The notes: a model not told the origin generated them from the sequence alone. Shown: positions 697-24,277, counted from the stretch's first letter. The stretch: DNA of 64,000 nt from a virus (IMGVR_UViG_3300042997_000757:30927-94926), one strand, 5' to 3'. Numbers and translations are program-made.

Positions 697-915
697 TTAG
701 TGAAACATCCCATCGGGTGCATCTGCGAGGGAGGGGCGCTCCATGATGCTGTACATCTCTCCTGTGGGGAAAGGTGCCTTAAGTGACGCCATGCGGTAGG
801 TGGCGTGTGTGGGATCAACGTCTCCACCACGGTCAGGGGTAAGAGACTTGAACATCCCGTCACGGGCGCCAAGCCTTAAATCATTGTTCATTGAGCGTGC
901 GTCATTTACTGCCAT
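697..915 (-). CDS. Hypothetical phage protein
   Basis: 72 aa ORF that fits the minus-strand gene tiling. Confidence 0.65.
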   Translation of the reverse strand: MAVNDARSMNNDLRLGARDGMFKSLTPDRGGDVDPTHATYRMASLKAPFPTGEMYSIMERPSLADAPDGMFH

Positions 916-935
916 ATCAATCTCTATTCTATCAG

Positions 936-1643
936 TTAAGTGAATGGGTCAAAATTATCATCGAGCAACCCCGGCGCTGGAGGCTGGGGGGAATTAGAAG
1001 AGTTTCGTGAAGAGCCTCTACGACGTCCGAGTCTCTCTGTAACAGCCTCTTTAGCACGTCGTGCTCCTCTACCAGCCAAGTCCAAAGTGGCGTCTTTAGC
1101 AAGACCAAGACCTAAACCAGCGAGGCTTCCAGTGCCTTCGTCGTTTTCAACACGCCTTGCACGACGTGCAGTGCGCTCCATGCCTTTTCCTTGTAACCAG
1201 TCAGAGACTTGCTCATCAGGCTTAGTGTTTTCTTCCATACCCCAAATAGGGTCAGTGTTCGCTGTGTGGCTGTAGTCAGGGCTTAAAACATCTGTAGATG
1301 CTTTATAACTACCTTGGGGTAAAGAATCGTTACTCTTAACGTGTTGAAAAGGTTTAGGTTTAGGTTTGTCGTCTGAATCCTCGTCCTCGTCCTCCTTGGG
1401 ACCAAGTTTTTTCATCATTTTGTTTATAGGGTTAAGGATAGAACCCTGTGTGTCTCGTTGCAGAACGGGTGGGCGACCACCAAAATTCTGTTGAACTCCT
1501 GCGTTAGGTGGTTGAAACCTATTTTGTGCAGGAGCCTGCCCACGGAAGATCTGTCCTTGTTTGTAAGGAACACTACTTACACGAGTAAAACTGTTTTGTG
1601 TGTTTGATGACCCTGAAACATCAGAGTTGAAATTGTCAGGCAT
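936..1643 (-). CDS. Hypothetical low-complexity hydrophilic protein
   Basis: 235 aa ORF; TAATG coupling to the upstream gene; Gln/Pro/Arg/Asp-rich. Confidence 0.7.
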   Translation of the reverse strand: MPDNFNSDVSGSSNTQNSFTRVSSVPYKQGQIFRGQAPAQNRFQPPNAGVQQNFGGRPPVLQRDTQGSILNPINKMMKKLGPKEDEDEDSDDKPKPKPFQHVKSNDSLPQGSYKASTDVLSPDYSHTANTDPIWGMEENTKPDEQVSDWLQGKGMERTARRARRVENDEGTGSLAGLGLGLAKDATLDLAGRGARRAKEAVTERLGRRRGSSRNSSNSPQPPAPGLLDDNFDPFT

Positions 1644-1951
1644 TATGCTCCCAAACTTTGCATGGAGTAACGGCTAGAGCCTTCCCAACTATCATCCACA
1701 AAACCATTGCGAAACATCACTGGAGCGCCTGACAACCATGAGCGGTTTGTAGGAAAGTTGCGGTCGATAGTGAGTACATCCATAATGCTCAAACTTTGTT
1801 TAGAAAAACCGTGTCTTGGTGGCATCAATTGCTGTGGTGAAGATGGGCGAATATTCCTAATAGTCTCAGGGTCAGAAATAGCAGACATCAATGCTTGGTC
1901 AACAAGCATCTCTGAATGGTTCTGATTGGGCTTATAGGGATACTGAGGCAC
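1643..1951 (-). CDS. Hypothetical protein
   Basis: 102 aa ORF, coupled to the next gene. Confidence 0.7.
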   Translation of the reverse strand: MPQYPYKPNQNHSEMLVDQALMSAISDPETIRNIRPSSPQQLMPPRHGFSKQSLSIMDVLTIDRNFPTNRSWLSGAPVMFRNGFVDDSWEGSSRYSMQSLGA

Positions 1952-1954
1952 TAT

Positions 1955-2140
1955 TTAATCGTCGTACTTAGATGATGAGTAACCATGGTTTTCAACAATT
2001 TCGGCAGGGTCTTTACCTTGGTATGACTCCTCCATATGTGAATTTTCACTATCTGCCAAACCTGCATTTTGGTTATCCGTCCACCTACTGCGGTGTACTT
2101 TGCGATTGGGATGATGTGCGGTGTTTTCGCCTCTAGCCAT
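1955..2140 (-). CDS. Small protein with N-terminal MARGENTAHHPNRKV tag (61 aa)
   Basis: Start revised to ATG 2140, which overlaps the upstream stop and matches the N-terminus of 2719..3024. Confidence 0.75.
   Translation of the reverse strand: MARGENTAHHPNRKVHRSRWTDNQNAGLADSENSHMEESYQGKDPAEIVENHGYSSSKYDD
2097..2140 (-). repeat. 44-bp direct repeat, copy 1 (encodes the N-terminal tag)
   Basis: 43/44 identical to 2981..3024; the single difference is synonymous (AAT/AAC). Confidence 0.95.
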
Positions 2141-2378
2141 TAGTGAATATCCTCTTAAATCCAGCCCGATCAAGGGCGTTACCGATACCTTCAACAACAT
2201 GACTGCTATCTGCAAGACCACTAGCAGGATCTACTCCAATATTGCCGTGGTAATTTACGGCAGATTGTAATCCTTGTGCCATTGCTTTACCCATATCAGA
2301 GCCAGTGCTGTCTTTTCCTCGCATAGGGATAATAGGGCGACGATTCGGGTGATGGCGAGTGTCTTCTCCACGAGGCAT
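2133..2378 (-). CDS. Small protein with related N-terminal tag MPRGEDTRHHPNRR (81 aa)
   Basis: ORF track; N-terminus similar to the neighbours; also shares GLADS with 1955..2140. Confidence 0.75.
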   Translation of the reverse strand: MPRGEDTRHHPNRRPIIPMRGKDSTGSDMGKAMAQGLQSAVNYHGNIGVDPASGLADSSHVVEGIGNALDRAGFKRIFTNG

Positions 2379-2380
2379 GA

Positions 2381-2710
2381 TTAATAGATCCGTTCTTTAG
2401 AAGAAGGTGTGTGTGGGTTCTTCTTACCTGAAGAGCCTGTTTTTTTATCATTAATCTTTTTAGAGTCAACTGGTTTAGCAATTACTTTTTTAGGCGTTGG
2501 CTTGTGCTTATCTTCTGGTGCCATTGTTTCTTTTGAATAATTCTTATCAGAATTTTTACGAGGAACAGACGGGAACTCATACTTTGAAGTTTTCTCTTTA
2601 GGTTCGTTTTGCTTTTCTTTAGATTCTGTTTTTTTTGAATAATTTTTATCAGAATCTTTACGAGGGGCAGGACTCCACTCATTCTTTGAAGTTTTCTTTT
2701 TATGTTCCAT
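2381..2710 (-). CDS. Lys-rich basic protein with an internal duplication
   Basis: AGGAG SD; KTSKNEWSPAPRKDSDKNYSK and KTSKYEFPSVPRKNSDKNYSK repeat units 34 aa apart. Confidence 0.7.
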   Translation of the reverse strand: MEHKKKTSKNEWSPAPRKDSDKNYSKKTESKEKQNEPKEKTSKYEFPSVPRKNSDKNYSKETMAPEDKHKPTPKKVIAKPVDSKKINDKKTGSSGKKNPHTPSSKERIY

Positions 2711-2718
2711 GACTCTCC

Positions 2719-3024
2719 TTACGAATCTTTCCGTGCAACTTGAATACGCTCCATGGTGGATTCTGCGTATTGACCTTTTGCTTTTTTAGCGGTTTCTTTC
2801 AGGTGCTTAATACGCACCTGCTTACCATAATACGGTGATGAGTCATCATCATGGACAAGTTGATCCAATGGGAATGACTCATGGTCACCTGTAGCCCAGT
2901 CCATACCTACTTGGTACCCTGTGGCATCTTTTGTCAAACTGTGGATATCGGTGTACCCATAGTTGTTACGATCTCGACCAACTTTGCGGTTGGGATGATG
3001 TGCGGTGTTTTCGCCTCTAGCCAT
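2719..3024 (-). CDS. Small protein with N-terminal MARGENTAHHPNRKV tag (101 aa)
   Basis: ORF track; first 15 aa identical to 1955..2140. Confidence 0.8.
   Translation of the reverse strand: MARGENTAHHPNRKVGRDRNNYGYTDIHSLTKDATGYQVGMDWATGDHESFPLDQLVHDDDSSPYYGKQVRIKHLKETAKKAKGQYAESTMERIQVARKDS
2981..3024 (-). repeat. 44-bp direct repeat, copy 2
   Basis: 43/44 identical to 2097..2140. Confidence 0.95.
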
Positions 3025-3041
3025 GATTAATCGCCTTTCAC

Positions 3042-3236
3042 TTAGCCTTGGTAACGACCATAGTCGTAGCCGTCAGTATATTCGGGAACATTAGTGCTTG
3101 GGTACACCAAAGGAAGTTGGTCATCCCGAGCAGACTCTAAGCCACTTTTAAAATGGTCTACACGATTAGGTTTATTGGTCTGTTGAAACATCCGCTTAAA
3201 GTCTTCTTTTGCTTCGGAATAGCGATCTTTATCCAT
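3042..3236 (-). CDS. Hypothetical protein
   Basis: 64 aa ORF preceded by TAAAAT 6 nt upstream of the ATG. Confidence 0.65.
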   Translation of the reverse strand: MDKDRYSEAKEDFKRMFQQTNKPNRVDHFKSGLESARDDQLPLVYPSTNVPEYTDGYDYGRYQG

Positions 3237-3242
3237 ACAAAC

Positions 3243-3248
3243 ATTTTA
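3243..3248 (-). promoter_or_regulatory. Putative -10 element (TAAAAT), leaderless arrangement
   Basis: GGTAAAAT + 6 nt + ATG(3236), no SD. Confidence 0.55.
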
Positions 3249-3252
3249 CCAG

Positions 3253-3750
3253 TTATCGCCAACGTGGAGCGAGAGACTTAAGCATAGAACGACGTTCAGG
3301 GCTGATCTCCTGTGCATCTTCCCAACTAGTTTGAGGGCTAGGGATGCCTCGTGGACCGACTTTGCCATCATTGGTGAGGCGTACAGGTTCGGCTCCTACA
3401 GGGGCAAACTTTTTACCTTTTGCTTGAAGTTCAAGAGCAGTATAAAGATTGAACTCGTCAGGCCAAATGTAGTCTCCTGCGTTGATGCGTTCGCCTTTGT
3501 GCACACCACGGCTGTACTGCCGAGCGTTCATGCGACTTAACGTGCCAAGAACCTTGTCTTGACGCCTGTTAGAAGACATGGTGCCAAGGTAACCATCAGG
3601 GTACTGAGCATCAGGGCTGTTACGGTAGCCCGTAAGCATCTGATCTTTAGCGTTACGGAACACTGGAGAAGGACCGTAGGTTACAGCGCTACCACCTTCT
3701 ACGGCGGTGTTGTTACTCCATTGGTTAAAAGTTTGGGTTTGTTGACTCAT
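3253..3750 (-). CDS. Hypothetical protein
   Basis: ORF track 3253..3759; start revised to ATG 3750 (TAATG coupling). Confidence 0.75.
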   Translation of the reverse strand: MSQQTQTFNQWSNNTAVEGGSAVTYGPSPVFRNAKDQMLTGYRNSPDAQYPDGYLGTMSSNRRQDKVLGTLSRMNARQYSRGVHKGERINAGDYIWPDEFNLYTALELQAKGKKFAPVGAEPVRLTNDGKVGPRGIPSPQTSWEDAQEISPERRSMLKSLAPRWR

Positions 3751-3902
3751 TAGCCCCAAGCACTTCCTGCGTTACCTGAAGGAGACATAAGCCCACCCTG
3801 TCCACCACCTATGTTTGAGATAGGGCGCATTGATTGCTGAACAGCACGCTTGCGTGCATAGCGTTGCTGTGTGCGTGAGCGGTAAGGCTTACGTGTTGTC
3901 AT
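3750..3902 (-). CDS. Small Arg-rich/Gly-rich protein (50 aa)
   Basis: Not in the ORF track; MTTRKPYRSRTQQRYARKRAVQQSMRPISNIGGGQGGLMSPSGNAGSAWG fills the gap exactly and is coupled to the downstream gene. Confidence 0.6.
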   Translation of the reverse strand: MTTRKPYRSRTQQRYARKRAVQQSMRPISNIGGGQGGLMSPSGNAGSAWG

Positions 3903-3905
3903 TAA

Positions 3906-4325
3906 TTAATCAAAAATTGATGGTTGAGGGGCACCGATTCCACCACCTTCAGGCTTAATGCCTTTGCGAGCAGTTTTACGAGCGTTATGACGAGCACCCA
4001 TTTTTGTTTTAAAACCAATGTTGCCAGTTGCAACGGTGCCTTCATCATAGTCAACAATGCTTGGATGATAACCTTTAGAAGATTTAATTGCACCAACCGC
4101 CATATTGCTACCTTGCGGAGCACCTAAACCCCTGTATGGTTTAGTATTTTCATTTTGATGGTTAAAACCTCGTGGGTTTTCGTGCAGTTGCTCCATTTTG
4201 TCACTGCCCCACTCAACAATAGGGACTCCATAAGCCTTAGACCTGTTGCTTCCAAACATGCTTCCACCACGACCATGCTCATGGTGTGATCGATCATCGT
4301 CGTACTGCCCTCTATGCTTAATCAT
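3906..4325 (-). CDS. Hypothetical Gly/His/basic protein
   Basis: 139 aa ORF with GAGG upstream. Confidence 0.7.
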   Translation of the reverse strand: MIKHRGQYDDDRSHHEHGRGGSMFGSNRSKAYGVPIVEWGSDKMEQLHENPRGFNHQNENTKPYRGLGAPQGSNMAVGAIKSSKGYHPSIVDYDEGTVATGNIGFKTKMGARHNARKTARKGIKPEGGGIGAPQPSIFD

Positions 4326-4331
4326 CGTGCC

Positions 4332-4622
4332 TCACTTAAGTATTGGTCGGAAAGAAATAGCGGAAATAGTTTCTCCGTTTTCACCGACAATATCGTCAAA
4401 ACCAATTATAAACGATAAATCGATGCCACGGGGAGCAACAAATCCACGGGAAATTGCTGCCGCTTTAGCGGCTTGGTTTACGGCAGATGCACCAATAGCA
4501 CGCATTTTAGGCAATTGACCTTGGTTAATTGCACGAGCCATGATTGATCCAACTGACTGTGGGTTGCTAGACCCTGACACTTTTAAGACGTCGTCAATTG
4601 TAGTATTTAATTCTTGTGACAT
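4332..4622 (-). CDS. spoVS: SpoVS-family (Alba-like) protein
   Basis: VLKVS..SNP..V...A, RAIGASAVNQAAKAAAISRGFVAP.GIDL...GFD.I......ISAI closely follow the SpoVS consensus. Confidence 0.9.
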   Translation of the reverse strand: MSQELNTTIDDVLKVSGSSNPQSVGSIMARAINQGQLPKMRAIGASAVNQAAKAAAISRGFVAPRGIDLSFIIGFDDIVGENGETISAISFRPILK

Positions 4623-4657
4623 TTAGGAACTCCTTGTAGAAAGATTGTCCCCTTATT

Positions 4658-5023
4658 TTACGAGTAATCGGCTTCCTGTAGTAGGTCAACTAGGTCGCCT
4701 AATCTCATCACAACGTACGTATCATCCAACGCTTTTTCGCCTTTACCAGCACGTTTGACGACTAAAACGGGAAGCGCCCCATTGAGGCGTTCAGCCTGCT
4801 CCACGGTGTCATTCAACCACTGGCTCAATTGAAACTGCTTTTGGTTCTTGCACTGTACGGCTACTTTTCGGAGGGTAGATCGACGAGCAAGACCATTGAT
4901 GTCTCCCGTGTCATTACCCCCCGATAAAGCAGGGCGGTGGGCGTGTATAAAACCTTTAGAAATTAAATAGTCTCTGATGAGTACTTCAAAGGATGTTCCT
5001 TTGGCTTTTGCTTTGTTTCCCAT
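4658..5023 (-). CDS. Holliday junction resolvase, PD-(D/E)XK type
   Basis: KAKGTSFE...DTGDI...VQCKN...WL...PVLVVKR pattern. Confidence 0.8.
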   Translation of the reverse strand: MGNKAKAKGTSFEVLIRDYLISKGFIHAHRPALSGGNDTGDINGLARRSTLRKVAVQCKNQKQFQLSQWLNDTVEQAERLNGALPVLVVKRAGKGEKALDDTYVVMRLGDLVDLLQEADYS

Positions 5024-5171
5024 TTTGCCTACTTTTAAGATGTTTCGTAATCGTAATCATCAAGTATTCTTTGAACCCAATAAATAAGGTCGGTAACAAC
5101 TTTACGTATTCCTTGAAAAGCAAAATAATAAATAGTAAATATGAAAAAACTGTTAAAAGACAACACTATCC

Positions 5172-5333
5172 CTATCTACTTACTTTGTATGTAGCACCCG
5201 TAAAAGAAGTCAACTTATACCTAAGTTCTTCATTTTCTTTTTCTAACTCCTGACAGCGTTGTACCCAAAACTTGATAACACGGCGTTGTTCTTGAATGGT
5301 TTCAGCCATCGACAGGTCTGGCATGTGGCTCAT
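5172..5333 (-). CDS. Small coiled-coil hypothetical protein (53 aa)
   Basis: Not in the ORF track; ATGA coupling; MSHMPDLSMAETIQEQRRVIKFWVQRCQELEKENEELRYKL... Confidence 0.5.
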   Translation of the reverse strand: MSHMPDLSMAETIQEQRRVIKFWVQRCQELEKENEELRYKLTSFTGATYKVSR

Positions 5334-5824
5334 GGGTTGAACCTTGCGTTACGGCGCTCCTGTGGAGCAAGACCAATGCGACGGCTAAGTTCACGGCTTA
5401 ACACTTGAGCGCCACGTTCACAACGTTCAAATACAGATTCAACTAGTTTGCGGTATGCCCGTGATTCCGAGTAGGCATTGCGAGCGTTAATAACTGACGT
5501 ATCAACATCTCGTTTAGCCTTAGCAAGAGTTACGGTGTCACCTTTGGTCTTATCATTCCACTGACCAATGAGAGTCAATGACTCAGTGACACGCATGTCA
5601 TTCTCTGCTCGTTCTTCTGCAATCTCCGCCTGTACGTACTCCGCTTTAGCGTAAGACACCCACGCCATAAACTCGTTATAGAGCGCCATCAATCTGCTGT
5701 CGGACAATTCGTCGAGAAGGGCGGGGATCGTTGGAATCTCCATCGGGGGTCGTGATGGTAGGTCGAACTTCTGCTTGAAATTTGTCATCACCTGATCCGT
5801 CGGACGACTTTGTACTACTCTCAT
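5330..5824 (-). CDS. Helical hypothetical protein, possibly a UvsY-like recombination mediator
   Basis: 164 aa helical/coiled-coil ORF in the RecA cluster; function inferred from context and general resemblance. Confidence 0.55.
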   Translation of the reverse strand: MRVVQSRPTDQVMTNFKQKFDLPSRPPMEIPTIPALLDELSDSRLMALYNEFMAWVSYAKAEYVQAEIAEERAENDMRVTESLTLIGQWNDKTKGDTVTLAKAKRDVDTSVINARNAYSESRAYRKLVESVFERCERGAQVLSRELSRRIGLAPQERRNARFNP

Positions 5825-6587
5825 TCCAACACTCCGTTTTAAAGGGACATGCCTTGCATATCCGATGCTCTTGTGACAACCACACTGGGCGGTTGGGGGG
5901 GACTTGTTCTTCTAATGCCCTTACCACGCTGTGGCATGAAGCAAGTATAGAGTCGACAATATCAGGTTGAAACTTAACCACAAATTCTTTTACATCTTGT
6001 GTGGGTTTCCACTCATACAAAATCAATGCGTCTTCAATTTTTAGGCATGACATGTACAACTGCACTTGCCGAACGTGTGAATCAAATGGAAACTTAACCC
6101 GATTCCATAGTTCATCAATTGTAATTTCTTTTTTAGCGTAGGGAGCAAAGAGTCCGTAATCTTCCATGCGGATAGTACCCACACCAACGCTCTTGATTTC
6201 TACTACTGCTTTGCCGTGCTTGTCTTCAATGATGGCATCTGCATGACCAATGATGCGGTGCATCTCATCTAGTACAGGTACTTCATCTTGAACAAGAATT
6301 CCGGCGTCTTTAAACCACTTCTGCCATTTACGATGAATGGAGTGACCCTCTTCAAAAATGTTCATGCGCTGTAATGACAGGCGCTCAGGTGGCGTTGGTA
6401 GCCCTGAGATTTTGTAATAAGACGAACGTGGGCACCAATCACGTTTACATATCTCAGATGGGTGCAGGTGTGCTTTATCTCGTTCTGCGTTTTTAGTTTG
6501 GTAGTCGCCTATCAAAAACTTTTCAACAGGGGCAAGCAGTCGAAATGGGCTGTTTAAAAGCCTCTTCATATCTTCAGAATTAATCAT
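5676..6587 (-). CDS. Cas4-like PD-(D/E)XK exonuclease with Fe-S cysteines
   Basis: HPSEI..WCPR, EGHSIH, GHADA, VEIKS, QVQLYM and C-terminal CKACPFKTEC. Confidence 0.85.
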   Translation of the reverse strand: MINSEDMKRLLNSPFRLLAPVEKFLIGDYQTKNAERDKAHLHPSEICKRDWCPRSSYYKISGLPTPPERLSLQRMNIFEEGHSIHRKWQKWFKDAGILVQDEVPVLDEMHRIIGHADAIIEDKHGKAVVEIKSVGVGTIRMEDYGLFAPYAKKEITIDELWNRVKFPFDSHVRQVQLYMSCLKIEDALILYEWKPTQDVKEFVVKFQPDIVDSILASCHSVVRALEEQVPPNRPVWLSQEHRICKACPFKTECWNESSTKSSDGSGDDKFQAEVRPTITTPDGDSNDPRPSRRIVRQQIDGAL

Positions 6588-6960
6588 CTAATGTCTTTTC
6601 GTATAAAGCCAGTGCTTCGTCCCATTGTTCATTTGTGGTATCAATATTAGTCATTGCTTCATAAAGAGTATGAGCAACTTTGAGCCATTTAGATTTTCTA
6701 ATTTTGTCTTTACGTTCTGATGCTAAAAATTTAGACTTGTATTTAATATGGAAATACGGAAGGCACCCATCTTCTGCTCTAATCAACAAAGAAAAAACAT
6801 CCCCACGTTCATGCAATTTAGATAAAGAACCACTAATAGTTCCATGATCTTTTTTTATACCTATAGTAAGTAAATCTTCTTCTAGTTGTCTCCATGTGCG
6901 CCCTTTTTCTGCATCAATCAAAAAAGACTCTAAAATAATGTCTTCTAAACTATTCATCAT
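6580..6960 (-). CDS. Hypothetical protein, possible winged HTH
   Basis: TWRQLEE...HGTISGSLSKLHERGDV; noticeably AT-rich. Confidence 0.6.
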   Translation of the reverse strand: MMNSLEDIILESFLIDAEKGRTWRQLEEDLLTIGIKKDHGTISGSLSKLHERGDVFSLLIRAEDGCLPYFHIKYKSKFLASERKDKIRKSKWLKVAHTLYEAMTNIDTTNEQWDEALALYEKTLDD

Positions 6961-7283
6961 TCACCAATAATTTCTAAAAAATCCGACTCAACAAGTACCA
7001 CGTAATTACGACCAGCGAGGTCAAATTGCAACACAGGTATACGGTCTTCCAAGATTGCACGTTCTCTCAATTCCACTAAATCTACATTCTTTAAAGTAAT
7101 ACTCTTTGTTGCGACCGTTAACTTGTTTTCAATAAGAAAAGTTTCTGACCGAACGTCGTTCTTGCGAAGCCACCCTGAACCTGAGCCAGCGTTACGGCTA
7201 CCTCTGTAGGATTTTGCTGAACGCTTCTCTTGTTTAACAGATTTCTTTAATATGTCTCTGCGGTCGTCCGCACCAAACGTCAT
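6957..7283 (-). CDS. Small PD-(D/E)XK nuclease / resolvase-like protein
   Basis: GSGSGW..KNDV....LIENK...PVLQF pattern. Confidence 0.7.
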   Translation of the reverse strand: MTFGADDRRDILKKSVKQEKRSAKSYRGSRNAGSGSGWLRKNDVRSETFLIENKLTVATKSITLKNVDLVELRERAILEDRIPVLQFDLAGRNYVVLVESDFLEIIGE

Positions 7284-8299
7284 GCTTCAATACCGTAACG
7301 CTCAAACACTGCGGTACGCATCTTGCTCTGAAGTTCTAGGTCTTCTCTAACAGCATCAAGCACCTTGTCCTTGCCCTGCCACTTTTGATCCCCGTAAGAA
7401 TAGAAAGCGCCAGCACGAGTAACTAGGTCAGAGGCTATTGCAATGTTCACAATGTCTTTCACTGTGTCAAATGAGCCAAAACTAAAACCATGAGCATCAG
7501 TGAAGTAGAAGTCAACAACTGCTGTTTGTTGTGGTCGATGTGTTTTGTTCTTGATGGTGCGTCCCTTAATAGACTGACCAACAGTTTCATCCTTCTCTTT
7601 GATCCACTCATCACGTTTTACTTCAACACGACAGAAGTAATGGAAGTTCTTTGCTTTACCGCCGGGAGTTGTGCGGTTGTCTCCCCACATCACACCAATC
7701 TTTTCACGCCACTGGTTAATGATAAGACCAGTACACCCACGGTCTTCGTCAATCAATGAACGTTTCTGTGACTTAGAAGACTTACGGAAAAACTTTCCAG
7801 TAAGACGAGCGCCAAGACCAACAGTGAACTCTTGCATCATCTTCTCTGCTTCGTCGTCGGGGACAAGAGCAGGCAATGAGTCAATGACAATCATGTCTAC
7901 TGCACGGTTGTCTAGGGCACGGATAGCAAGGTCGTACACTTCTTCCATGATGTTGTTCTCAACAATCCAAAGACGGTCAAGGTCAACACCAATGGCTTTT
8001 GCGTAGTCGGGAACAAAATCTTCAGCAGCAATCCATAGTGCGCAAAACTCAGGGTCAAGTGCTTGATTAGCCGCAATAGTTTTATATGCCATTGCAGTTT
8101 TTCCTGAAGACTCTTCACCAATGATCTCACTCCATTGGTTGACAGGCCACCCTCCACCAAGCATGAGGTCAAAAGCGAGAACACCTGTAGTGATGCGTGG
8201 CATCATCTCTTTAACATCAGAACCTTTTACAAGAGTTCCGTCACCGTGCTTTTTGTTGATAGATGAAATAATTGATTGAAGTGATTCATAGTTGGACAT
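7280..8299 (-). CDS. recA: RecA recombinase
   Basis: TTGVLAFDLMLGGG.P, Walker A GEESSGKT, VIDSLPALVP, INQWREKIGV, TPGGKA. Confidence 0.95.
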   Translation of the reverse strand: MSNYESLQSIISSINKKHGDGTLVKGSDVKEMMPRITTGVLAFDLMLGGGWPVNQWSEIIGEESSGKTAMAYKTIAANQALDPEFCALWIAAEDFVPDYAKAIGVDLDRLWIVENNIMEEVYDLAIRALDNRAVDMIVIDSLPALVPDDEAEKMMQEFTVGLGARLTGKFFRKSSKSQKRSLIDEDRGCTGLIINQWREKIGVMWGDNRTTPGGKAKNFHYFCRVEVKRDEWIKEKDETVGQSIKGRTIKNKTHRPQQTAVVDFYFTDAHGFSFGSFDTVKDIVNIAIASDLVTRAGAFYSYGDQKWQGKDKVLDAVREDLELQSKMRTAVFERYGIEA

Positions 8300-8701
8300 T
8301 TAAACTCCCCAGTTGCCTTGTGATGCTTGATCGTACATACCATTCCAACCGCATTCATAGCAGCGTGGTGCAGGTGTTGCCCCGTTAATTGTTGTTCCTG
8401 CACCTCTACCAGTTCGGCTAAAGACATAGATACTTCCGCAGTCAGGGCAGGTCACGTTACCATCTTTACGGTGCGCTTCCCCCCCTTTCCACAAACGAAG
8501 TGCTTCTCCCATAGTTATTTGATCTGTGGGTGAACGGCTTGGGTCAAGTACATCTTGTTTCTGTTGTTGTTGCTGTTGTACAGGCGTTTGTGGTTGTTCT
8601 GTATAGGGAATGCGCATAGGAGGTGATGTAGGCGGAGTTTGATACGTCCGCTGTGGGGTGGGCTGTTGCCCTGTAAGTTTTTTTGACCACCAGTCACTCA
8701 T
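8300..8701 (-). CDS. Zn-ribbon hypothetical protein
   Basis: CPDCGS and CYECG motifs. Confidence 0.7.
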   Translation of the reverse strand: MSDWWSKKLTGQQPTPQRTYQTPPTSPPMRIPYTEQPQTPVQQQQQQKQDVLDPSRSPTDQITMGEALRLWKGGEAHRKDGNVTCPDCGSIYVFSRTGRGAGTTINGATPAPRCYECGWNGMYDQASQGNWGV

Positions 8702-9038
8702 CTACAACCTCCGTCAACATGAGTAGCGCTACTTTGTCCGAATCTAAAAGTTTATTCATAAACGCTAAAGTATGCGCAATAAGTAAACGCTTAAAATTAT
8801 CCTGCAAAGAATCGGGGATGTCAATGAATCCCTCAATTTCCATAAGCCAATCTGAAGTTTCTATGGCGTCTTCTAGTACCCCTGCGGTTGCCAAAAGAGA
8901 CCATCTAGAAATAATGTCGTAAGTTTCTGCTTCTTGAACTTCTTCTGAAGGTTTAGAAAACCCAACGTTGTTTGCGAAGTCTTGTCCTTCAGAAGGGGAA
9001 AGCATTAGATAGTACATGCGCTTATCGACGGCACTCAT
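8694..9038 (-). CDS. Hypothetical protein
   Basis: Start revised to ATG 9038 (ATGA overlap with the polymerase stop). Confidence 0.7.
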   Translation of the reverse strand: MSAVDKRMYYLMLSPSEGQDFANNVGFSKPSEEVQEAETYDIISRWSLLATAGVLEDAIETSDWLMEIEGFIDIPDSLQDNFKRLLIAHTLAFMNKLLDSDKVALLMLTEVVDE

Positions 9039-11086
9039 CCTTTGGCTTCTGCCCAACTGTAGGCAGAGTCACATGAAACCATTAAAGGTACCCCGTCAAT
9101 GATGCGTCCGTGACCCATGGCTTCCATAAAGCGTGGAGTTATTTCTTCAATAAGGTCTTCGGGCACGGATACCACCAATTCGTCATGTACTTGGACTAAT
9201 AGACTAGCACCAGTACCTTTTAGCAGATCGTGGATGTCCAGCATGGCTTGCTTGCAGATATCAGCGGCTGATCCTTGTACGACGGCGTTTACAGCCTGCC
9301 GTTCGGCACGGGAGCGCTCCATGTCATCATTAGATTTGAGGTCAGGAAGACGACGTCTACGCCCTGCCATAGTCTCTACATAGCCCCGTATGCGTCCGTT
9401 TGCTACGACTTGGCGCTTCCACTCCGTAATGCCTGAAAACTGCCTGTAGTAGTTGTCAATAATCTCTCGGGCTTCATCAACAGAGATGCCAGTGGTGGTA
9501 GCCAACTTGCCAGCGCCACCACCGTAGGCAGTAAGGAAGTTAACCCCTTTTCCTACCTGCCGTTCATCACTGGTTACTTCTGCGATGGGCTTTTTAAAAA
9601 TAAGAGCGGCTGCTCCGGCGTGAATGTCTTCTTCATTTCTGAAGATACGGCTCATCTGTTTGTCATGAGAGAACATCGCCATGACCCGCAACTCAATTTG
9701 GTCATAGTCAGCCACAAGCAATTTGTACCCCTCGGGGGCAACAAACAAACTTCTAATACTGGATGAGCGTGGAATGTTCTGAAGGTTTGGGTTGCTAGAA
9801 GACAAACGCCCTGTGGCGGTGCGGTGAAGGTGAAAGGATGGATGCAGTCTGTGGTTATTCAACTTAGGGATAAGACCCTCAACATACGTTGATTTAAGTT
9901 TCTGCATTTCCGAGTATTCCAACAACAAAGGAACAACGGGGTGTTCTCCCTTTAACTTCTGTAAGGATTCTTCATCTACCGACGGAGCACCTTTAGCGGT
10001 TTTCTTTACTGGCTTAAGCGATAAGCCACCTTCACGCTTTTTGTTAAACAGGAGCGCTTGTTTGTGTGGGTTTGAATCAGGGTTGAAACCTACGAAGGCG
10101 TGTTCCGAGATGGCGAGAATAGTTTCCCTAATTTTTCCATCAAGTTCCCTGCCCAATACTTTGAGCGCACGACTATCCACCAAAATGCCATTGTCTTCCA
10201 TTTCCATTAGTACACGCAAAACTTTTGCGTCAAGGTTAAAACACTCAAGTAAGTCATCTTTGGCGCTGATCATCCGCCACATGCGAGTGTAAAGCATCCA
10301 TGTCCACCGAGCATCTAAGTGCACATAGCGAACTGCTTTATCAAACGGCACGTTGTCAATAATCTTGCCTATCTTGCCTTCACGAGAGTAGGGATTGTAA
10401 CCACCGTAGTTCTTCATAATAACTTGCTCAAGAGAGTAAGACATCAAGTTTTCATCAAGCACATGTTGCATCAAGATGGTGTCTGCGAATGGACCATGAG
10501 GCAATTCTCCGTAGTACTTGCCAATAGACCGAGCGTCAAACTTAACGTTGTGCCCGACCTTTACAAGGTCACTAAAGAACAGTGGGCGTAGTGCTTCTAA
10601 AACTTCAGAACGATTCAACTGCACCGGAACGGTGTCGTAAACAGCAGGAATGGTGTAACGGGCTTTTGCTAACGACTCTTGCCCATTCTTTAACATCTTG
10701 CGATAACCCTCAGGTGGGACAGTAGAACCATCGCCATTCTCTTCAGGTGTCAAAATAATACCAAGTTTGTGACCCATAGGAATAGCCCATGAATGACCGT
10801 GTGTGGCTAAAGAAATCCAAAACACCTCGTTGCGCATTGGGTCTAAAGCAAGGTTTCCCCGATGTTTGTCTTCAATGTTTTGACGTGCCTTTAAAGCAAT
10901 GTCAGGTGAAGGGGACTTTAATTTCGTGAGGTGTTCTTTCCAGTCACGATCAACAAATCCTTGCACATCGGGGTGCCGTTCCAGCACGCCACGGGTTTCG
11001 ACGTCAAAGACGAAAGCACCGTGACGCTGGATTTCGGCAACTGCTTCATGCACCTCAGCAATAGAGGAGATGACGCTATAACCCAT
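9035..11086 (-). CDS. polA: Family A DNA polymerase with 3'-5' exonuclease
   Basis: FDVET, GHNVKFD, TATGRLSSSNPNLQNIP, ADYDQIELR, RQVGKGVNFLTAYG, VQGSAAD, QVHDEL. Confidence 0.97.
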   Translation of the reverse strand: MGYSVISSIAEVHEAVAEIQRHGAFVFDVETRGVLERHPDVQGFVDRDWKEHLTKLKSPSPDIALKARQNIEDKHRGNLALDPMRNEVFWISLATHGHSWAIPMGHKLGIILTPEENGDGSTVPPEGYRKMLKNGQESLAKARYTIPAVYDTVPVQLNRSEVLEALRPLFFSDLVKVGHNVKFDARSIGKYYGELPHGPFADTILMQHVLDENLMSYSLEQVIMKNYGGYNPYSREGKIGKIIDNVPFDKAVRYVHLDARWTWMLYTRMWRMISAKDDLLECFNLDAKVLRVLMEMEDNGILVDSRALKVLGRELDGKIRETILAISEHAFVGFNPDSNPHKQALLFNKKREGGLSLKPVKKTAKGAPSVDEESLQKLKGEHPVVPLLLEYSEMQKLKSTYVEGLIPKLNNHRLHPSFHLHRTATGRLSSSNPNLQNIPRSSSIRSLFVAPEGYKLLVADYDQIELRVMAMFSHDKQMSRIFRNEEDIHAGAAALIFKKPIAEVTSDERQVGKGVNFLTAYGGGAGKLATTTGISVDEAREIIDNYYRQFSGITEWKRQVVANGRIRGYVETMAGRRRRLPDLKSNDDMERSRAERQAVNAVVQGSAADICKQAMLDIHDLLKGTGASLLVQVHDELVVSVPEDLIEEITPRFMEAMGHGRIIDGVPLMVSCDSAYSWAEAKG

Positions 11087-11811
11087 CAGTCAGTTTGTAA
11101 TTCAAGTGCTACCGCTGCAAGTGTTTTACGAGCAGGGGTGCGAATGATGTCATCGGTATAAGCAACACCTGAGAAGTAGTGAAGCGACTCAATGCTAAGA
11201 GCCTCTAGACCCCAATCAGAAAGGTCGTCTTTCTTGACCATCTGATGATTGGTTGCTGTAGTTGCGCCTTTACCGCTACGAGACACTGTCCAGTAATGCT
11301 TTGACAGTGGACCCATTGCAGGATGATCATTGAAGTTCTTCAACTGGTCAATAACTCGTGCGCCAACTTCATATGAACGAAGAACTGGTTCTTCACCAAC
11401 GGTGAGGAGAACTACGTTGAAGTTAAAGCGCCATGCGGCACGACTACCTGCTTCACAAAGTGGACATGATGTGCCCGACTCAATGTCAGCAATGCAAGTA
11501 AAGGACTTCTGTCCTGAGCGCTCTACCCAGTGTTGGCGGTAGCGAGCGTATGGTTGATCTTCAAGAAATTTGATGATCTGTGTTTCTTCAGTGACCTTTA
11601 GACGCTTTGCAAAGTCGTCGCTTGATGTTGCTGTCGTGCGGTCGGGGCTACCCCAACCACTGCGAACAACACGTCCTACAACAGGCTTGTCGTCTTCATC
11701 GTCATCGGTAATAATTGGGCGTGCTTTACGAGTAAGCCCTTCTTTTGGTGATTGCGCTGGCTTGGCGAACTCTTGCTCGTCGTCCTCGAAATCTTCGTCC
11801 CATCGTCCCAT
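11086..11811 (-). CDS. Single-stranded DNA-binding protein (gp32-like)
   Basis: KFLE..P....QHW....SFTC......CPLC, FNV; adjacent to the polymerase. Confidence 0.7.
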   Translation of the reverse strand: MGRWDEDFEDDEQEFAKPAQSPKEGLTRKARPIITDDDEDDKPVVGRVVRSGWGSPDRTTATSSDDFAKRLKVTEETQIIKFLEDQPYARYRQHWVERSGQKSFTCIADIESGTSCPLCEAGSRAAWRFNFNVVLLTVGEEPVLRSYEVGARVIDQLKNFNDHPAMGPLSKHYWTVSRSGKGATTATNHQMVKKDDLSDWGLEALSIESLHYFSGVAYTDDIIRTPARKTLAAVALELQTD

Positions 11812-15143: not shown

Positions 15144-16368
15144 GTTCTTCTCCTACCTCTGTAAAGTCCATGTTCTCCCAGTCCCATTTAATCCGTACTT
15201 CACCTTTAGGAGCAGCACGAGCCAAGATAACTCGGATGATGGATTGATTGTCAATATCAGGGTCGGACTCAACACCAAGTACTAAGTCTGAGTCTTGAAC
15301 AAACGAAGAGGAGTAACCAATAGCGTCCGATGTGATTGCACGAGATTTCTTGTTACCGAGTTTCCATGCAAGTACTTGGGTGGTGCCAATGATGGGCACA
15401 TCAAAACGCTGTGCAAGGCGCTTCAATCCCCGTGTAATGCTCGTAAGTGCTTGTGGGCTACCTTTAGGTTCACCATTCTCATCATCCATGAGATACACGC
15501 CGTCAACAATTACTAGACCCGGCCTGTACTGCTGGATCTTTCCAGCGATAGCGCTGATAGTTGTAAGCGATGAAGCGTCTTCAGTCATGATGAACTGTTG
15601 CATGTTCTTGCGAACTTTGATGGCATCTTCAATACGTTGCAACTCACTTAGGTTCAAGTCGCCACGCATAATCTTTGTGTGCGCTACACCTGCAATAAGA
15701 GAGTCGTAACGTGCTTCTTGTTCTTCAATACTCATTTCAAAAGAGATGTACAAAGGAACAATGCCGTGTGCGTGAGCGGCTTGAGCCATGATGAGAGTCA
15801 TCAATGATTTACCTTTTTTGGCTTCACCTACAAACGTGATCAACTGTTGTGGTCTAAAGCCTGCGGTAATTCTGTCAAGACCATTGAAACCTGATGGGAT
15901 ACCACGAAGACCATTAGGTGTTTCTCGCATAACCTTGTAACGCTCAATGCGCTTTTCCCATGTGTCAATAAGGTTGACGTCACGAAGGTGCGCAACTTCA
16001 AGAGCCGCTTTCTGCAAACCCTCACTAAGTATCTGTATTGCCTCATCAGTTTTAAGATCGTTAAGAGCAGGTGTTGCGGCTGCGACCGAGATAACAAGGT
16101 GCTTGTGTTTGTATGCCGAGTACAACTCGTCAATGAGTCGTGGGAAGGGTTCTGCTTCTGCGTTGAGAAGTTGGATATCACCAAACTGTTGCTTCAATAC
16201 ACGGGGTGTAGGTACTGCGCTGTAGTCACGCCAGTAACCAAGAATCCAAATAAGCATTTCTGCCCAGTCTTTAGAAAGATGGTCAGGGCGTACACCTGCT
16301 TCAATGATCTCGGTAACGGATGCCGTCTGAATAATTTTGCTTATTAAAAGATGCTCACTACTTGCCAC
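15118..16368 (-). CDS. dnaB: Replicative DnaB-like helicase
   Basis: GIPSGFNGLD..T.G, GEAKKGKS, SFEMS, IVDGVYLM, QDSDLV; likely GTG start at 16368. Confidence 0.92.
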   Translation of the reverse strand: MASSEHLLISKIIQTASVTEIIEAGVRPDHLSKDWAEMLIWILGYWRDYSAVPTPRVLKQQFGDIQLLNAEAEPFPRLIDELYSAYKHKHLVISVAAATPALNDLKTDEAIQILSEGLQKAALEVAHLRDVNLIDTWEKRIERYKVMRETPNGLRGIPSGFNGLDRITAGFRPQQLITFVGEAKKGKSLMTLIMAQAAHAHGIVPLYISFEMSIEEQEARYDSLIAGVAHTKIMRGDLNLSELQRIEDAIKVRKNMQQFIMTEDASSLTTISAIAGKIQQYRPGLVIVDGVYLMDDENGEPKGSPQALTSITRGLKRLAQRFDVPIIGTTQVLAWKLGNKKSRAITSDAIGYSSSFVQDSDLVLGVESDPDIDNQSIIRVILARAAPKGEVRIKWDWENMDFTEVGEEREHSDWDY

Positions 16369-16808
16369 TACGGTGCCCACGCCCTGTCTGAACTAACGAC
16401 TGTGGAGCGCATTCCCAATACTTTTGCATGTTCTTCATTAGTGACATATATGGTCCTGATTGCTCGTTGAAATCTAAGGTCGTACTCAAGTAGTTCGACG
16501 CTGTCGTAAAAATATACGGGAGTAGATATTCCCTTACGCATGAGCCAGTTGTCAATGACTGGTACTGCATCTTCTGAGAGAAAAGTGTAAACGTCAGTAC
16601 CAAGTCCTAAACGGTTTACCGAATCTGCCAATGCTTTTAAAGGAAGAGTGTGTGGTTCCCACAAAGAAATTGCTCGCTCCCAATTATTTCGTTTGCGGTG
16701 AATGTTTTCTAAAAGATTCTTTGCACCTTGTGGTGGAGAAGCAAGCAATCCCTCAAAGATTAACGCTTGTGCTAATGGAGCATAGGAACTGAGATCATTC
16801 CCCTGCAT
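16368..16808 (-). CDS. Hypothetical protein (possible degenerate HAD-like fold)
   Basis: Start revised to ATG 16808; coupled on both sides. Confidence 0.65.
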   Translation of the reverse strand: MQGNDLSSYAPLAQALIFEGLLASPPQGAKNLLENIHRKRNNWERAISLWEPHTLPLKALADSVNRLGLGTDVYTFLSEDAVPVIDNWLMRKGISTPVYFYDSVELLEYDLRFQRAIRTIYVTNEEHAKVLGMRSTVVSSDRAWAP

Positions 16809-17451
16809 GTTCGTCCATCCATTTGTTAATACGGTAGTCCTCATTACGAAGAGGTGCTACGTAACAACACGCTGAAAGTATTGAAGAAACACTCTTGCTG
16901 TACATGGTTGTGAGACTATCGGGTTTGTATGTGCTGGTGACGATAGTGGTTAACTTTTCGTGATAACGAGATTCAATAAGTGAACAAATTGCTTTGCGTG
17001 TGAAATCAGTAGGTCGCTCGGTACCAAGTGAATCTAATACGACGATGTCGTAGACCTCTTGCATGTATTTAAGCGTGTTTGGGTCTTCATACCCCTCAGG
17101 TAACTCCCCTGAAAACTTAACTTCGTTGTAAGCCATCTGGATGTACTTGTCTGCTGTGACAAAGACTCCGCAAAGATTGTGTTTGTAAACAGCCCGTTTA
17201 AGTGCTGCTTGAGCAAGGTGCGTTTTACCTGAACCTGTTGCGCCAACAATGTATAAACCTTGACCATCTTCAACATGTTTCTCTGAGTCGTTAACCCAAC
17301 TTTCAATTAAAGCAAAAGTTTTCTCATCTCCTTTTTGAACCTTAAAAGTATCAAGAGTGTCTTGTCGAAAACGGCGTGGAATCAAAGTGTTCTGCGCACG
17401 TTCTTCATCAGAACGGTTGCGCCAGTAACGTCGGCTACGAAGTTCAGTCAT
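16795..17451 (-). CDS. DnaC/IstB-like AAA+ helicase loader
   Basis: GLYIVGATGSGKTHLA, VVLDSLGTE, LIESRY, TIVTS, DYR. Confidence 0.88.
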   Translation of the reverse strand: MTELRSRRYWRNRSDEERAQNTLIPRRFRQDTLDTFKVQKGDEKTFALIESWVNDSEKHVEDGQGLYIVGATGSGKTHLAQAALKRAVYKHNLCGVFVTADKYIQMAYNEVKFSGELPEGYEDPNTLKYMQEVYDIVVLDSLGTERPTDFTRKAICSLIESRYHEKLTTIVTSTYKPDSLTTMYSKSVSSILSACCYVAPLRNEDYRINKWMDEHAGE

Positions 17452-17617
17452 TGTCAAAAAAGTCCTTTAAACATTTGGTTGCTAGGTGCTCATACATATC
17501 TTCAATATCCTCGAAGATTTCATCACAGATTCTGCAACGAAACCCAATACCCTCTTCTTCTTCTCTATAGCACTCCTGCTTAGTCCGGTAGGAGCCGGAT
17601 GTCCACTTGCAAGTCAT
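17444..17617 (-). CDS. Small Zn-finger-like protein (57 aa)
   Basis: Not in the ORF track; AAGGAG SD; ...FRCRICDEIFEDIEDMYEHLATKC...; stop overlaps the loader start. Confidence 0.65.
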   Translation of the reverse strand: MTCKWTSGSYRTKQECYREEEEGIGFRCRICDEIFEDIEDMYEHLATKCLKDFFDND

Positions 17618-17993
17618 CGTAAGTGGTCTCCTTAGGTGCTGTAGGCGTGTTACTGAGGTGGTCTAGGTTAGCGAGGAAAGCACGCCACGGTGCAACACCA
17701 TTAGGCAAAGGTTTACGAACAAGATCCTCTGCAAATGTTTTCATCATGGTACGAATTTCTTCAGGCGTTTTACCTGAGTCACGTAGTTTCTTTACGCCAA
17801 CCATGAGTGCTTTCCCATTTACTGGAGAATTAAGTTTACCCCATGCGTCTACAGGCAATATTGTGGCAAAGTACCCCACCAACCCTGACAGGGTGTCTTG
17901 TCGGGGAGTTTTCTTCGGGGACGCAGTGGCGTGTTCCTTCTCAGGGTCAGCACCAAGGGGGGTACCCCAATCGTCTGCTGGTTGCTTCCTCAT
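17580..17993 (-). CDS. Hypothetical replication-module protein
   Basis: 137 aa ORF with ATGA coupling; C-terminal YDDLQVDIRL. Confidence 0.75.
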   Translation of the reverse strand: MRKQPADDWGTPLGADPEKEHATASPKKTPRQDTLSGLVGYFATILPVDAWGKLNSPVNGKALMVGVKKLRDSGKTPEEIRTMMKTFAEDLVRKPLPNGVAPWRAFLANLDHLSNTPTAPKETTYDDLQVDIRLLPD

Positions 17994-18493
17994 TTGAGCC
18001 TCTCATCTACCTCAAGGTCGTCGTACTCGGATTTTCGTTTCTTGGTATGGGTACTCTTATTAATACTCTTATTACTTAACTCTTTATTGGGTGTCACCCG
18101 TGTCACTAGGGTAGTGTCACCAGTGTCACCACTAGTAGTGTCATGGGTGACACTAGGTAGTGTCATGGGTGTCACTACCCCTAAGGCTTCAGGGTTATTG
18201 AAGTTGATGATAAAGGCATTGGACATGTTCCGATTATTGGTGCCTCGGTGGCGTCGTACAAGCACCCCAGTAGCCACTAAACGGTTGACCGCACGAATAA
18301 CCGTTCGCCTATCAACGCCCACCTGTTCAGCGATGTACTGGTAGGACGTTGTCGTGGTCTGTGTCTCGGGCTTCATGTAGACGAGGAGTTCAAGAAGGAC
18401 GGCTTTAGCAGTTGAGTCGTTCTTCAGATACGGGAGTACCCATCGAGGAAACCCTAGGAAGGCCCCCCCAAATTTTGTGGCTGGTTTGCTCAT
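17990..18493 (-). CDS. wHTH replication initiator (lambda O-like)
   Basis: SYQYIAEQVGVDRRTVIRAVNRLVATGVL HTH, SN motif, internal repeats, upstream of loader and helicase. Confidence 0.8.
   Translation of the reverse strand: MSKPATKFGGAFLGFPRWVLPYLKNDSTAKAVLLELLVYMKPETQTTTTSYQYIAEQVGVDRRTVIRAVNRLVATGVLVRRHRGTNNRNMSNAFIINFNNPEALGVVTPMTLPSVTHDTTSGDTGDTTLVTRVTPNKELSNKSINKSTHTKKRKSEYDDLEVDERLK
18052..18175. repeat. Putative replication origin: GTGTCA iterons plus AT-rich repeats
   Basis: GTGTCA at 18091, 18100, 18114, 18123, 18138, 18160 and 18169, inverted copy at 18147-18153; TACTCTTATTA at 18052 and 18064. Confidence 0.75.
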
Positions 18494-18624
18494 TTATTGC
18501 TCCATTGTTTGCGACTGTGGAATGACGATGATACACTGCTTTTGCTGTCATGTACACCTACTTGAGTGTAAGTACGGTGTGATAGTACCTCCATTGGTTG
18601 GTCCCTTTGGTTGGTTGCTCAGGT

Positions 18625-18662
18625 AAATGGCTGGATATGGCAGAAACTGTATCCAGCCATTT
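18625..18662. promoter_or_regulatory. Perfect 13-bp inverted repeat in the divergent intergenic region
   Basis: AAATGGCTGGATA-N12-TATCCAGCCATTT. Confidence 0.7.
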
Positions 18663-18675
18663 GCTGTTTATAGGG

Positions 18676-18681
18676 TAAAAT
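18676..18681 (+). promoter_or_regulatory. Putative -10 element (TAAAAT), leaderless arrangement
   Basis: GGTAAAAT + 5 nt + ATG(18687). Confidence 0.55.
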
Positions 18682-18686
18682 AGGGC

Positions 18687-18863
18687 ATGGCTGAAAAGAA
18701 ACCCACCAAAAAAGAAGTATGGGACACACCAGACCCTTCTAAAAAAGATAAGAAGTTGACTCCTGAACAAAAGTCTGAAGCAAAATCTCGTGCTAAAAAA
18801 GCAGGACGTCCTTACCCAAATCTTGTAGACAATATGGCTGTGTCCAAGAAAGGAAAGAAGTAA
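18687..18863 (+). CDS. Small basic phage protein (58 aa)
   Basis: Not in the ORF track; MAEKKPTKKEVWDTPDPS...AKSRAKKAGRPYPNLVDNMAVSKK; TAATG coupling. Confidence 0.75.
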   Translation: MAEKKPTKKEVWDTPDPSKKDKKLTPEQKSEAKSRAKKAGRPYPNLVDNMAVSKKGKK

Positions 18864-19144
18864 TGGCTGCCAAGAAATCTGATGCGTGGCAACGCAAAGA
18901 AGGAAAGAACAAAGAGGGTGGGCTAAACGAAAAAGGACGCAAGTCTTACGAAAAAGCCAACCCCGGCAGTGACCTTAAGCCTCCTGTATCTAAAGAACAG
19001 GCTAAGAAGTCTCCTAAGTCTGCCGCTCGTCGTGATTCTTTCTGTGCTCGCATGGAAGGTATGAAGAAGAAAAACACTTCATCTAAAACTGCAAATGATC
19101 CTGATTCTCGTATTAACAAGTCTCTTAAAAAGTGGGACTGCTAA
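18863..19144 (+). CDS. Small basic phage protein (DUF6321-like)
   Basis: AWQRKEGKN..GGLNEKGR.SY, SFCARM, DPDSRINKSL.KW.C. Confidence 0.75.
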   Translation: MAAKKSDAWQRKEGKNKEGGLNEKGRKSYEKANPGSDLKPPVSKEQAKKSPKSAARRDSFCARMEGMKKKNTSSKTANDPDSRINKSLKKWDC

Positions 19145-19578
19145 TGAGCGCTCTTACCAATGACCTTAAAACCCTTTTGGCTGACTCTGTCACAATGTAT
19201 TTTGTTGCACATGGTTATCATTGGAACGTAGAAGGTTCTGACTTTAGTCAGTACCATGCACTCTTTGCAGAAATTTATGAAGATGTCTACAGCGCTATTG
19301 ATCCTTTGGCAGAAGATTTACGCAAACTAGATGAGTATGCACCTTTTACTTTGAGCAAGTTTATTGATCTTAGAACAGTTGAAAGTGTTGAAGTAGCACC
19401 TAATCCTAAAGCAATGGCAAAAGCCTTGCTAAAGGTTAATCAAGGTGTTCTTGAAACCATCAGCAAGGCTTTTGTTTCGGCTAATAAAGCCAATGAGCAG
19501 GGTATTGCTAACTTTCTCGCAGAGCGAGACAACATGCACAAGAAGTGGGCATGGCAACTAACTGCTTCAACTAAGTAG
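19144..19578 (+). CDS. dps: Dps/ferritin-like DNA protection protein
   Basis: HGYHWNVEG..F...H..F.E.Y......D..AE, H.K..W.L; start revised to 19144. Confidence 0.92.
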   Translation: MSALTNDLKTLLADSVTMYFVAHGYHWNVEGSDFSQYHALFAEIYEDVYSAIDPLAEDLRKLDEYAPFTLSKFIDLRTVESVEVAPNPKAMAKALLKVNQGVLETISKAFVSANKANEQGIANFLAERDNMHKKWAWQLTASTK

Positions 19579-20343: not shown

Positions 20344-20353
20344 ATTGCTTCCT

Positions 20354-20608
20354 TTATCTACTAGATTTACGGGCAGCAACGTCTCCTAGAAGGGTTATCA
20401 ATCTGAGAATTCCGTGTACTGCACCTGCGAGTGTAGCGACTACTAACCCTGATGTCCACATATCTTCAATGCGAAGAACAGCGCTAACTGCATACCCCAA
20501 TATAATACCAACACTAACTTTTACCCAAGGCATTGCTTCTTTTGGCAACATGGCATCTAAAAATTGAATCAGTTTATAAACGGCTAGTGCACTTATTATG
20601 TAGGTCAT
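20354..20608 (-). CDS. Small membrane protein (possible holin)
   Basis: Hydrophobic segments and a basic C-terminus; ATGA coupling. Confidence 0.6.
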   Translation of the reverse strand: MTYIISALAVYKLIQFLDAMLPKEAMPWVKVSVGIILGYAVSAVLRIEDMWTSGLVVATLAGAVHGILRLITLLGDVAARKSSR

Positions 20609-22266: not shown

Positions 22267-22268
22267 TA

Positions 22269-24271: not shown

Positions 24272-24277
24272 TGTTAG

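Follow-up and report, generated by a model that had tools for sequence, protein, structure and literature searches.

A 17-residue peptide with the consensus M-[AP]-[RKN]-G-[EK]-[DN]-T-x-x-H-P-N-R-x-V-x-R forms the N-terminus of many otherwise unrelated small accessory proteins in one clade of actinobacterial myoviruses, and purifying selection acts on this peptide, not on its DNA, independently of the body to which it is attached. The peptide, here called the tag, is basic and His-rich. It is found in a 64,000-nucleotide stretch of viral DNA (the window), which makes up the final 64 kb of a 94,926-bp IMG/VR virus record rated complete by CheckV and which carries nearly every gene on its minus strand. 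An initial annotation of the window had proposed a common N-terminal tag on three small ORFs, designated A, B and C below; all three are present where it placed them, on the minus strand, and share the 17-residue peptide. The ORFs lie in an island between two conserved genes, with the following layout.

1643..1951, minus strand: conserved gene of 102 aa, the downstream border of the island, which tagged ORFs usually abut
1955..2140, minus strand: tagged ORF C, 61 aa, with the tag at 2090-2140
2133..2378, minus strand: tagged ORF B, 81 aa, with a tag variant at 2328-2378 that starts MPRGEDT
2381..2710, minus strand: untagged Lys-rich ORF with an internal direct repeat, 109 aa, island cargo lying between tagged genes
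2719..3024, minus strand: tagged ORF A, 101 aa, with the tag in codons 1-17 (2974-3024)
3042..3236, minus strand: untagged island ORF, 64 aa, conserved in the closest relative only
3253..3750, minus strand: conserved core gene of 165 aa, the upstream border of the island, a homologue of gp48 of Streptomyces phage BRock
3906..4325, minus strand: ORF outside the tag family, described in the initial annotation as a weak echo of the tag

ORFs A and C have the same residues at positions 1-15 and 17. The reported identity of their DNA over the first 44 nt from the ATG, broken by one synonymous C/T change, was reproduced; the two match at 41 of 42 nt in codons 1-14 and at only 7 of 30 nt upstream, where they are unrelated. 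The tag of ORF B departs from the A/C peptide by three replacements and seven synonymous changes across 12 codons. BLASTP alignment among the three ORFs is confined to the tag and their bodies are unrelated. A GLADS pentapeptide noted earlier in two of the three is indeed there, but no wider body homology accompanies it. The start of ORF C and the stop of ORF B overlap by 8 nt. ORF A has full-length orthologues at 60-96% identity, and the body of ORF B recurs in relatives under other tag variants. No further copy of the tag motif, searched as a regular expression, occurs in the whole 94,926-bp genome, and the supposed weak echo at 3906..4325 was dropped from the family, with a BLASTP E value of 4.7 and no match to the tag regexes.

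None of eight complete relatives has a homologue of the untagged ORF at 2381..2710, which may be a newly arisen gene. No recognisable domain is found in the genes flanking the island, an ESM Atlas search with the 102-aa gene gave no usable match, and a promoter and terminator scan of the island returned nothing exceeding shuffled expectation. Downstream of a SpoVS-like gene, the region 936-4325 (minus strand) encodes a series of small, very hydrophilic, low-complexity proteins (for example 3906-4325, 3750-3902 and 936-1643), the majority of which are not conserved even in close relatives.

DNA-pattern scans of IMG/VR and JGI metagenomes provided ~60 related loci. Many of these contain tandem runs of 2-5 tagged ORFs, copy numbers that are biased upward as the loci were retrieved through the tag itself, with many of the records being fragments. 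Five pattern matches from metagenomes (L043, L050, L052, L062 and L065) were removed because they lay in wrong frames. In a set of 39 distinct proteins, residues 1-17 have a high information content, which collapses at residue 18; residues 1-13 are set by the search pattern, but residues 15 and 17 are free of it and are conserved at 92% and 72% (R17), respectively. In 42 distinct tag-coding sequences, codons 2-17 have a pS of 0.68 and a pN of 0.25, compared with 0.74 and 0.72 in the 13 codons after the tag. G4, T7, P11 and R13 are invariant, yet 3-5 codons are used for each. Conservation sets in exactly at the ATG, and both the 30 nt upstream of it and the DNA past codon 17 show background identity. 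As synonymous sites are saturated, the invariant residues vary in codon and the flanks are unconserved, conservation is at the level of the peptide. The initial annotation had named nucleotide-level conservation as one of two outcomes that would speak against a tag, the other being a motif confined to this genome with full-length homology among carriers; the values for codons 2-17 show the opposite of the first, and the spread and unrelated bodies described below the opposite of the second. A nucleotide-level element, whether a translational operator, an sRNA target or solely a recombination site, is rejected on the same saturated synonymous sites and unconserved flanks.

The tag extends well beyond the window genome. 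A profile of 30 columns built from 41 tags was searched against 1.84 billion representative proteins and yielded 152 protein clusters (50% identity level) at E <= 1e-3, a spread that excludes chance. All real matches are 50-186 aa long; a lone row of 1,576 aa has no matched stretch. The tag stands at residue 1 in all matches bar one or two, and in the clear exception 8 residues precede it, apparently through a mis-called start. Separately, a tag-like core, D-T-G-S-H-P-G-R-K-V-D-R-E, lies around residue 28 of the 265-aa product of L215:3017-3814 (plus strand), which is possibly either an exception to N-terminal anchoring or a mis-called start itself. The ~60 fetched loci alone contain ~25 unrelated body clusters, and the full-length homology among carriers that would be expected of a paralogous tandem family was not found by clustering or BLASTP. 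The wider search and domain catalogue thus agree with the earlier description of a portable tag on diverse cargo, with more than 150 body families retrieved by profile. This result also bears on whether the tag is a functionless, neutral remnant of a recent tandem duplication. Two of the three window copies are near-identical in DNA, as such a remnant would be, but that pair reflects a local conversion event (see below), while the 42 tags have kept the peptide with their synonymous sites saturated and 152 body families carry it. Neutral duplication is refuted on these two grounds, and the probability we leave to it is negligible.

Tagged proteins have a median total length of 80 aa and a maximum of 186 aa. 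Their bodies are very hydrophilic, with a median GRAVY of -1.0 and just 24% order-promoting residues; 56% are acidic, 31% are basic and ten have at least four Cys. The bodies are themselves conserved, apart from the tag. A Pfam scan of 149 members gave no match save three weak zinc-finger matches, no recognised effector domain (ART, ParB, peptidase or others) was seen in the 149, and the bodies fall in no PHROG family. Most bodies are probably disordered, with some forming tiny folded or zinc-ribbon domains. AlphaFold2 models of the seven-member ORF A family predict a small beta-rich domain over residues 21-98 (pLDDT about 80-87), for which Foldseek finds no significant PDB neighbour, and an unstructured stretch over tag residues 1-18 (pLDDT below 50). 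The tag is thus predicted to be disordered. The tag profile itself resembles PDB sequences only through a chance match to human iduronidase. Its DNA pattern has no match in 185,579 bacterial and archaeal species genomes, so the tag belongs to lytic phages and not to hosts or prophages, and mimicry of a host protein and a prophage origin are both rejected. A search of cultured phages likewise gave no match, at the level of DNA or to the tag in proteins, and BRock has no tag.

The tag behaves as a module. The body of ORF C is identical to its orthologue in L210 at 130 of 135 nt, whereas its first 14 codons match that orthologue at 28 of 42 nt and ORF A at 41 of 42. As the body follows the L210 orthologue while the tag follows ORF A, the 42-nt tag DNA of ORF C is, judged by sequence, a clean recent conversion from its neighbour. 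The body family of L027:499-771 occurs untagged in another complete genome, where the protein starts about where the tag would end. Two further N-terminal heads are present in these loci. A second head, in which M-x-[HTK]-[DN]-H-R-[GM] precedes I-A-D-P, was counted on 25 distinct small proteins from these islands, and at least four body families, that of ORF C included, carry either the tag (head 1) or head 2. A third head, M-T-L-N-x-x-Q-F, is shared by small island ORFs and a 162-aa ART (PARP / ART-PolyVal) protein. Examples are as follows.

L004:12138-12724, minus strand: second head
L030:583-792, minus strand: second head
L215:2099-2476, plus strand: second head
L215:2514-3002, plus strand: third head
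L213:8250-8738, plus strand: third head
L004:11956-12138, minus strand: third head

In L215 the heads follow one another in the order 1, 1', 2, 3, and G000 8178-8879 has a start similar to the third head. The proposal that the tag is shuffled onto ORFs by recombination is upheld by the conversion in ORF C, the body that occurs without its tag and the head swaps, and comparison of these genes shows that recombination exchanges tag-coding DNA between them. Tags are no closer within a genome than between genomes: synonymous codon identity is 0.54 within and 0.48 between (p = 0.08), and identity at variable residues is 0.44 and 0.41, respectively (p = 0.22). This indicates that the tag is kept by selection and not by constant homogenisation. 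Tag variants show no significant genome-specific co-variation of the sort that would be a receptor signature.

The explanation we favour, and judge somewhat likelier to be right than wrong, is that the tag is a docking or address peptide read near the free N-terminus by one common partner. Such a partner would treat every carrier as one class and leave the individual functions to the bodies, with host takeover or anti-defence the most plausible of these. Against this, no partner was found, and the lack of within-genome co-variation among tag variants gives no sign of a genome-specific receptor. The peptide could also be self-sufficient, with no dedicated reader, serving as a small warhead that binds metal or nucleic acid, or as an expression or stability cassette acting through efficient initiation, coupling or the shielding of disordered proteins from proteolysis. 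The strict N-terminal anchoring, the basic, His-rich composition on disordered bodies and the frequent TAATG stop-start overlaps of tagged ORFs, which indicate translational coupling, are in keeping with a self-sufficient peptide. However, amino-acid conservation to residue 17 exceeds the needs of an initiation context, the bodies are conserved too and so are not mere tails, and the tag can vanish while the body stays. We regard a self-sufficient peptide as distinctly improbable.

The genomic setting of the tag bears on what an address peptide might address. The phage is a myovirus. It encodes a sheath, a baseplate and the large terminase, with the portal gene at 41506-43197 and that of the major capsid protein at 39526-40611. 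An actinobacterial host is likely from its gene content and relatives, as the genome encodes WhiB and an Rpf-like transglycosylase domain and the cultured phages closest to it are BRock, GiJojo and Alone3 of Streptomyces, with a portal identity of about 52%. Tagged genes usually sit in a hypervariable island, flanked by two conserved genes, in freshwater actinophage genomes of ~95 kb. Gene order in the relatives is constant, running RecA-like, Cas4-like, PD-(D/E)XK nuclease, SpoVS-like, the 165-aa gene and the island, after which come the 102-aa gene (1643-1951) and more small genes that are conserved. In most genomes this places the island at the end of a replication/recombination operon, outside the head module. 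The island varies from ~350 bp to ~2.5 kb, holds 0-5 tagged ORFs and differs between close relatives.

In BRock, gp48 is the tblastn homologue of the 165-aa gene (47% identity) and is directly followed by gp47, with no island between them. The 102-aa gene is likely a homologue of gp47 by eye, although tblastn at E <= 1e-4 gives no homologue of it in BRock. On this reading the island would be an insertion hot spot of the freshwater clade. In the BRock region 16000-26500 (L209), homologues or by-eye counterparts of 3253-3750, 1643-1951, 697-915 and 185-652 form a framework interleaved with a glycoside hydrolase, a transglycosylase and an endolysin, which hints that the framework may belong to a late or lysis-proximal module. 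Strong canonical tags occur in 3 of 11 relatives picked by portal alone. The islands of the remainder hold degenerate variants, including one genome with three copies of a degenerate form containing R-P-N-G-A-G-R-V-D-R. That complete relatives carry only degenerate tags implies that the system is dispensable.

Two arrangements depart from the usual position. The distant relative G001 (62-64% G+C, portal 57%) has two tagged genes between terminase and portal. L213, L215 and L216 each have an operon that lies beyond a divergent intergenic region and begins with a tagged gene; next come a degenerate copy, a head-2 gene and the 162-aa ART with head 3, with a sigma-70 region-4 protein further along. 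The L213/L215 arrangement looks like an early operon. An operon in which a tagged gene leads an ART and a sigma-70 region-4 protein, both typical of takeover genes, is what might be expected if the tag docked early proteins onto a single host machine, such as RNA polymerase, the ribosome, a protease or a defence protein. The accessory, hypervariable character of the genes and their restriction to lytic phages are also compatible with host docking. Conversely, the tag is near-constant across phages of 44-64% G+C that presumably have different hosts, and no host protein in the 185,579 species genomes carries or mimics it. Docking on a host machine appears rather unlikely to us.

The reader of the tag was sought among phage genes. 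Two window genes near the head genes are relevant.

40648-41454, minus strand: Glu/Lys/Gln-rich coiled-coil protein of 268 aa, between portal and major capsid protein
43574-44227, minus strand: HslV/proteasome-like peptidase (Pfam Proteasome), between terminase and portal

The initial annotation had offered recruitment of a modifying or processing enzyme as one role of the tag. A leader or recognition peptide for such an enzyme (RiPP-like, a hydroxylase or a peptidase), acting on the tag or the body, has the appeal that a shared leader on variable proteins is RiPP logic and that the invariant T, P, N and R residues are modifiable. No enzyme co-varies with the tag, however. Presence and absence of all genes across the eight complete relatives revealed no accessory gene that tracks the canonical tag by being present in all tag-bearing relatives and absent from others. 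A halogenase/2OG-oxygenase cluster is missing from the tag-bearing G016 and G017, and its link to the tag is rejected. The HslV-like peptidase is core in the freshwater clade (eight complete relatives), but it was detected neither in BRock nor in the tag-bearing G001, whose genome is only 58% complete; this non-detection weakens its link to the tag. The neighbouring genes scanned (window 186 through 5023 and genes downstream) contain no modifying or processing enzyme, with SpoVS and the PD-(D/E)XK nuclease the only Pfam matches around the island and NT5C, WhiB and the transglycosylase domain further downstream. Bodies of up to 186 aa, at least one with a predicted folded domain, also speak against an enzyme leader, which we consider very unlikely. 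Elsewhere, in L217 (G000 753-11127), ten proteins gave one weak Pfam match, to Peptidase_M91 (E = 0.006). The reader of an address peptide, if there is one, is probably to be sought among core phage proteins, in the head-assembly machinery or in the host, and not among accessory enzymes.

Within the address-peptide reading, loading into the capsid is by analogy the leading specific candidate, which we hold tentatively as possible but not probable. Here the tag would dock on the scaffold, the portal or another prohead component, the proteins would be packaged and ejected with the DNA, and the tag may be cleaved off afterwards. Its form resembles the capsid-targeting sequence (CTS) and hyperplastic internal-protein loci of T4, whose internal proteins are described as highly diverse defence proteins with only a conserved CTS in common (PMC3012670). 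Cargo that is small and unfolded would pass readily through a tail, the tagged genes of G001 lie between terminase and portal, and in the L213-type operon tagged genes are accompanied by the head-3 ART, a protein of the ART-PolyVal kind, for which packaging and injection have been proposed (Iyer et al. 2017, PMC5512222). The coiled-coil protein at 40648-41454 matches no PHROG or Pfam family but is probably a scaffolding protein, and as a separate putative scaffold would offer a docking surface.

Several observations count against capsid loading. Tagged genes are usually far from head genes, the L213/L215 operon looks early with a sigma-like gene adjoining a tagged gene, more than half of the bodies are acidic, and the nearest cultured relative, BRock, is without the tag. 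A scan of 43 window proteins gave no PHROG or Pfam match to a classical or gp21-like prohead protease; these proteins come from a minority of the genes, among them most of the large ORFs and those lying between terminase and capsid. Likewise, no cleavage motif common to the tag and the head proteins was seen. The HslV-like peptidase might serve as the prohead protease; the M-T-T-I-V-G at residues 13-18 of its listed ORF is probably its true start, as in HslV. An extension of capsid loading is that the three or more interchangeable heads constitute a cargo-loading code that would route hundreds of miniprotein and enzyme families into the virion for co-injection, with new cargo gained by recombination at the head-coding DNA. 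We think this broader scheme doubtful.

The T4 CTS is ~10 residues long and ends at the gp21 cleavage site. The tag has 17 residues, bears no resemblance by eye to the T4 CTS, and has a boundary residue, R17, that is only 72% conserved, with no gp21-like protease or shared cleavage motif found. The setting also differs, as this is an uncultured actinobacterial myovirus related to Borockvirus. The likeness to the internal proteins IPI, IPII and IPIII of T4 and the T-even phages is in organisation: a short N-terminal peptide is all that the small, diverse accessory proteins have in common, their genes occupy plastic loci, and the T-even cargo is thought to counter host defence (PMC3012670). RiPP precursors also combine a conserved N-terminal stretch, variable downstream sequence and several tandem genes. 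They differ in that no maturase or recognition domain is nearby or co-varies here, and in place of a short core peptide the bodies have 35-170 residues and are hydrophilic, one being predicted to fold. Polyvalent or injected effectors (PMC5512222) are likewise accessory conflict proteins delivered as a class, and the ART-PolyVal-type ART in the tagged-gene operon of L213, L215 and L216 bears another of the shared heads. Unlike those effectors, the tagged proteins are single and tiny, with no recognised effector domain and no MuF or portal fusion. No description of the tag peptide was found in the literature on the T4 CTS, freshwater actinophages, HslV or polyvalent proteins.

If the tag is an address label, a class of more than 150 accessory-protein families, otherwise unannotatable 'dark matter', becomes identifiable by sequence alone, and these families belong to abundant freshwater actinobacterial phages. 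The clean mosaic junctions show how such phages build genes, with a standard head grafted onto new bodies. If the tag proved to be a packaging signal, it would be the first system of the T4-CTS type to be found beyond the T-even phages and would provide a natural tool to load proteins into actinophage capsids.
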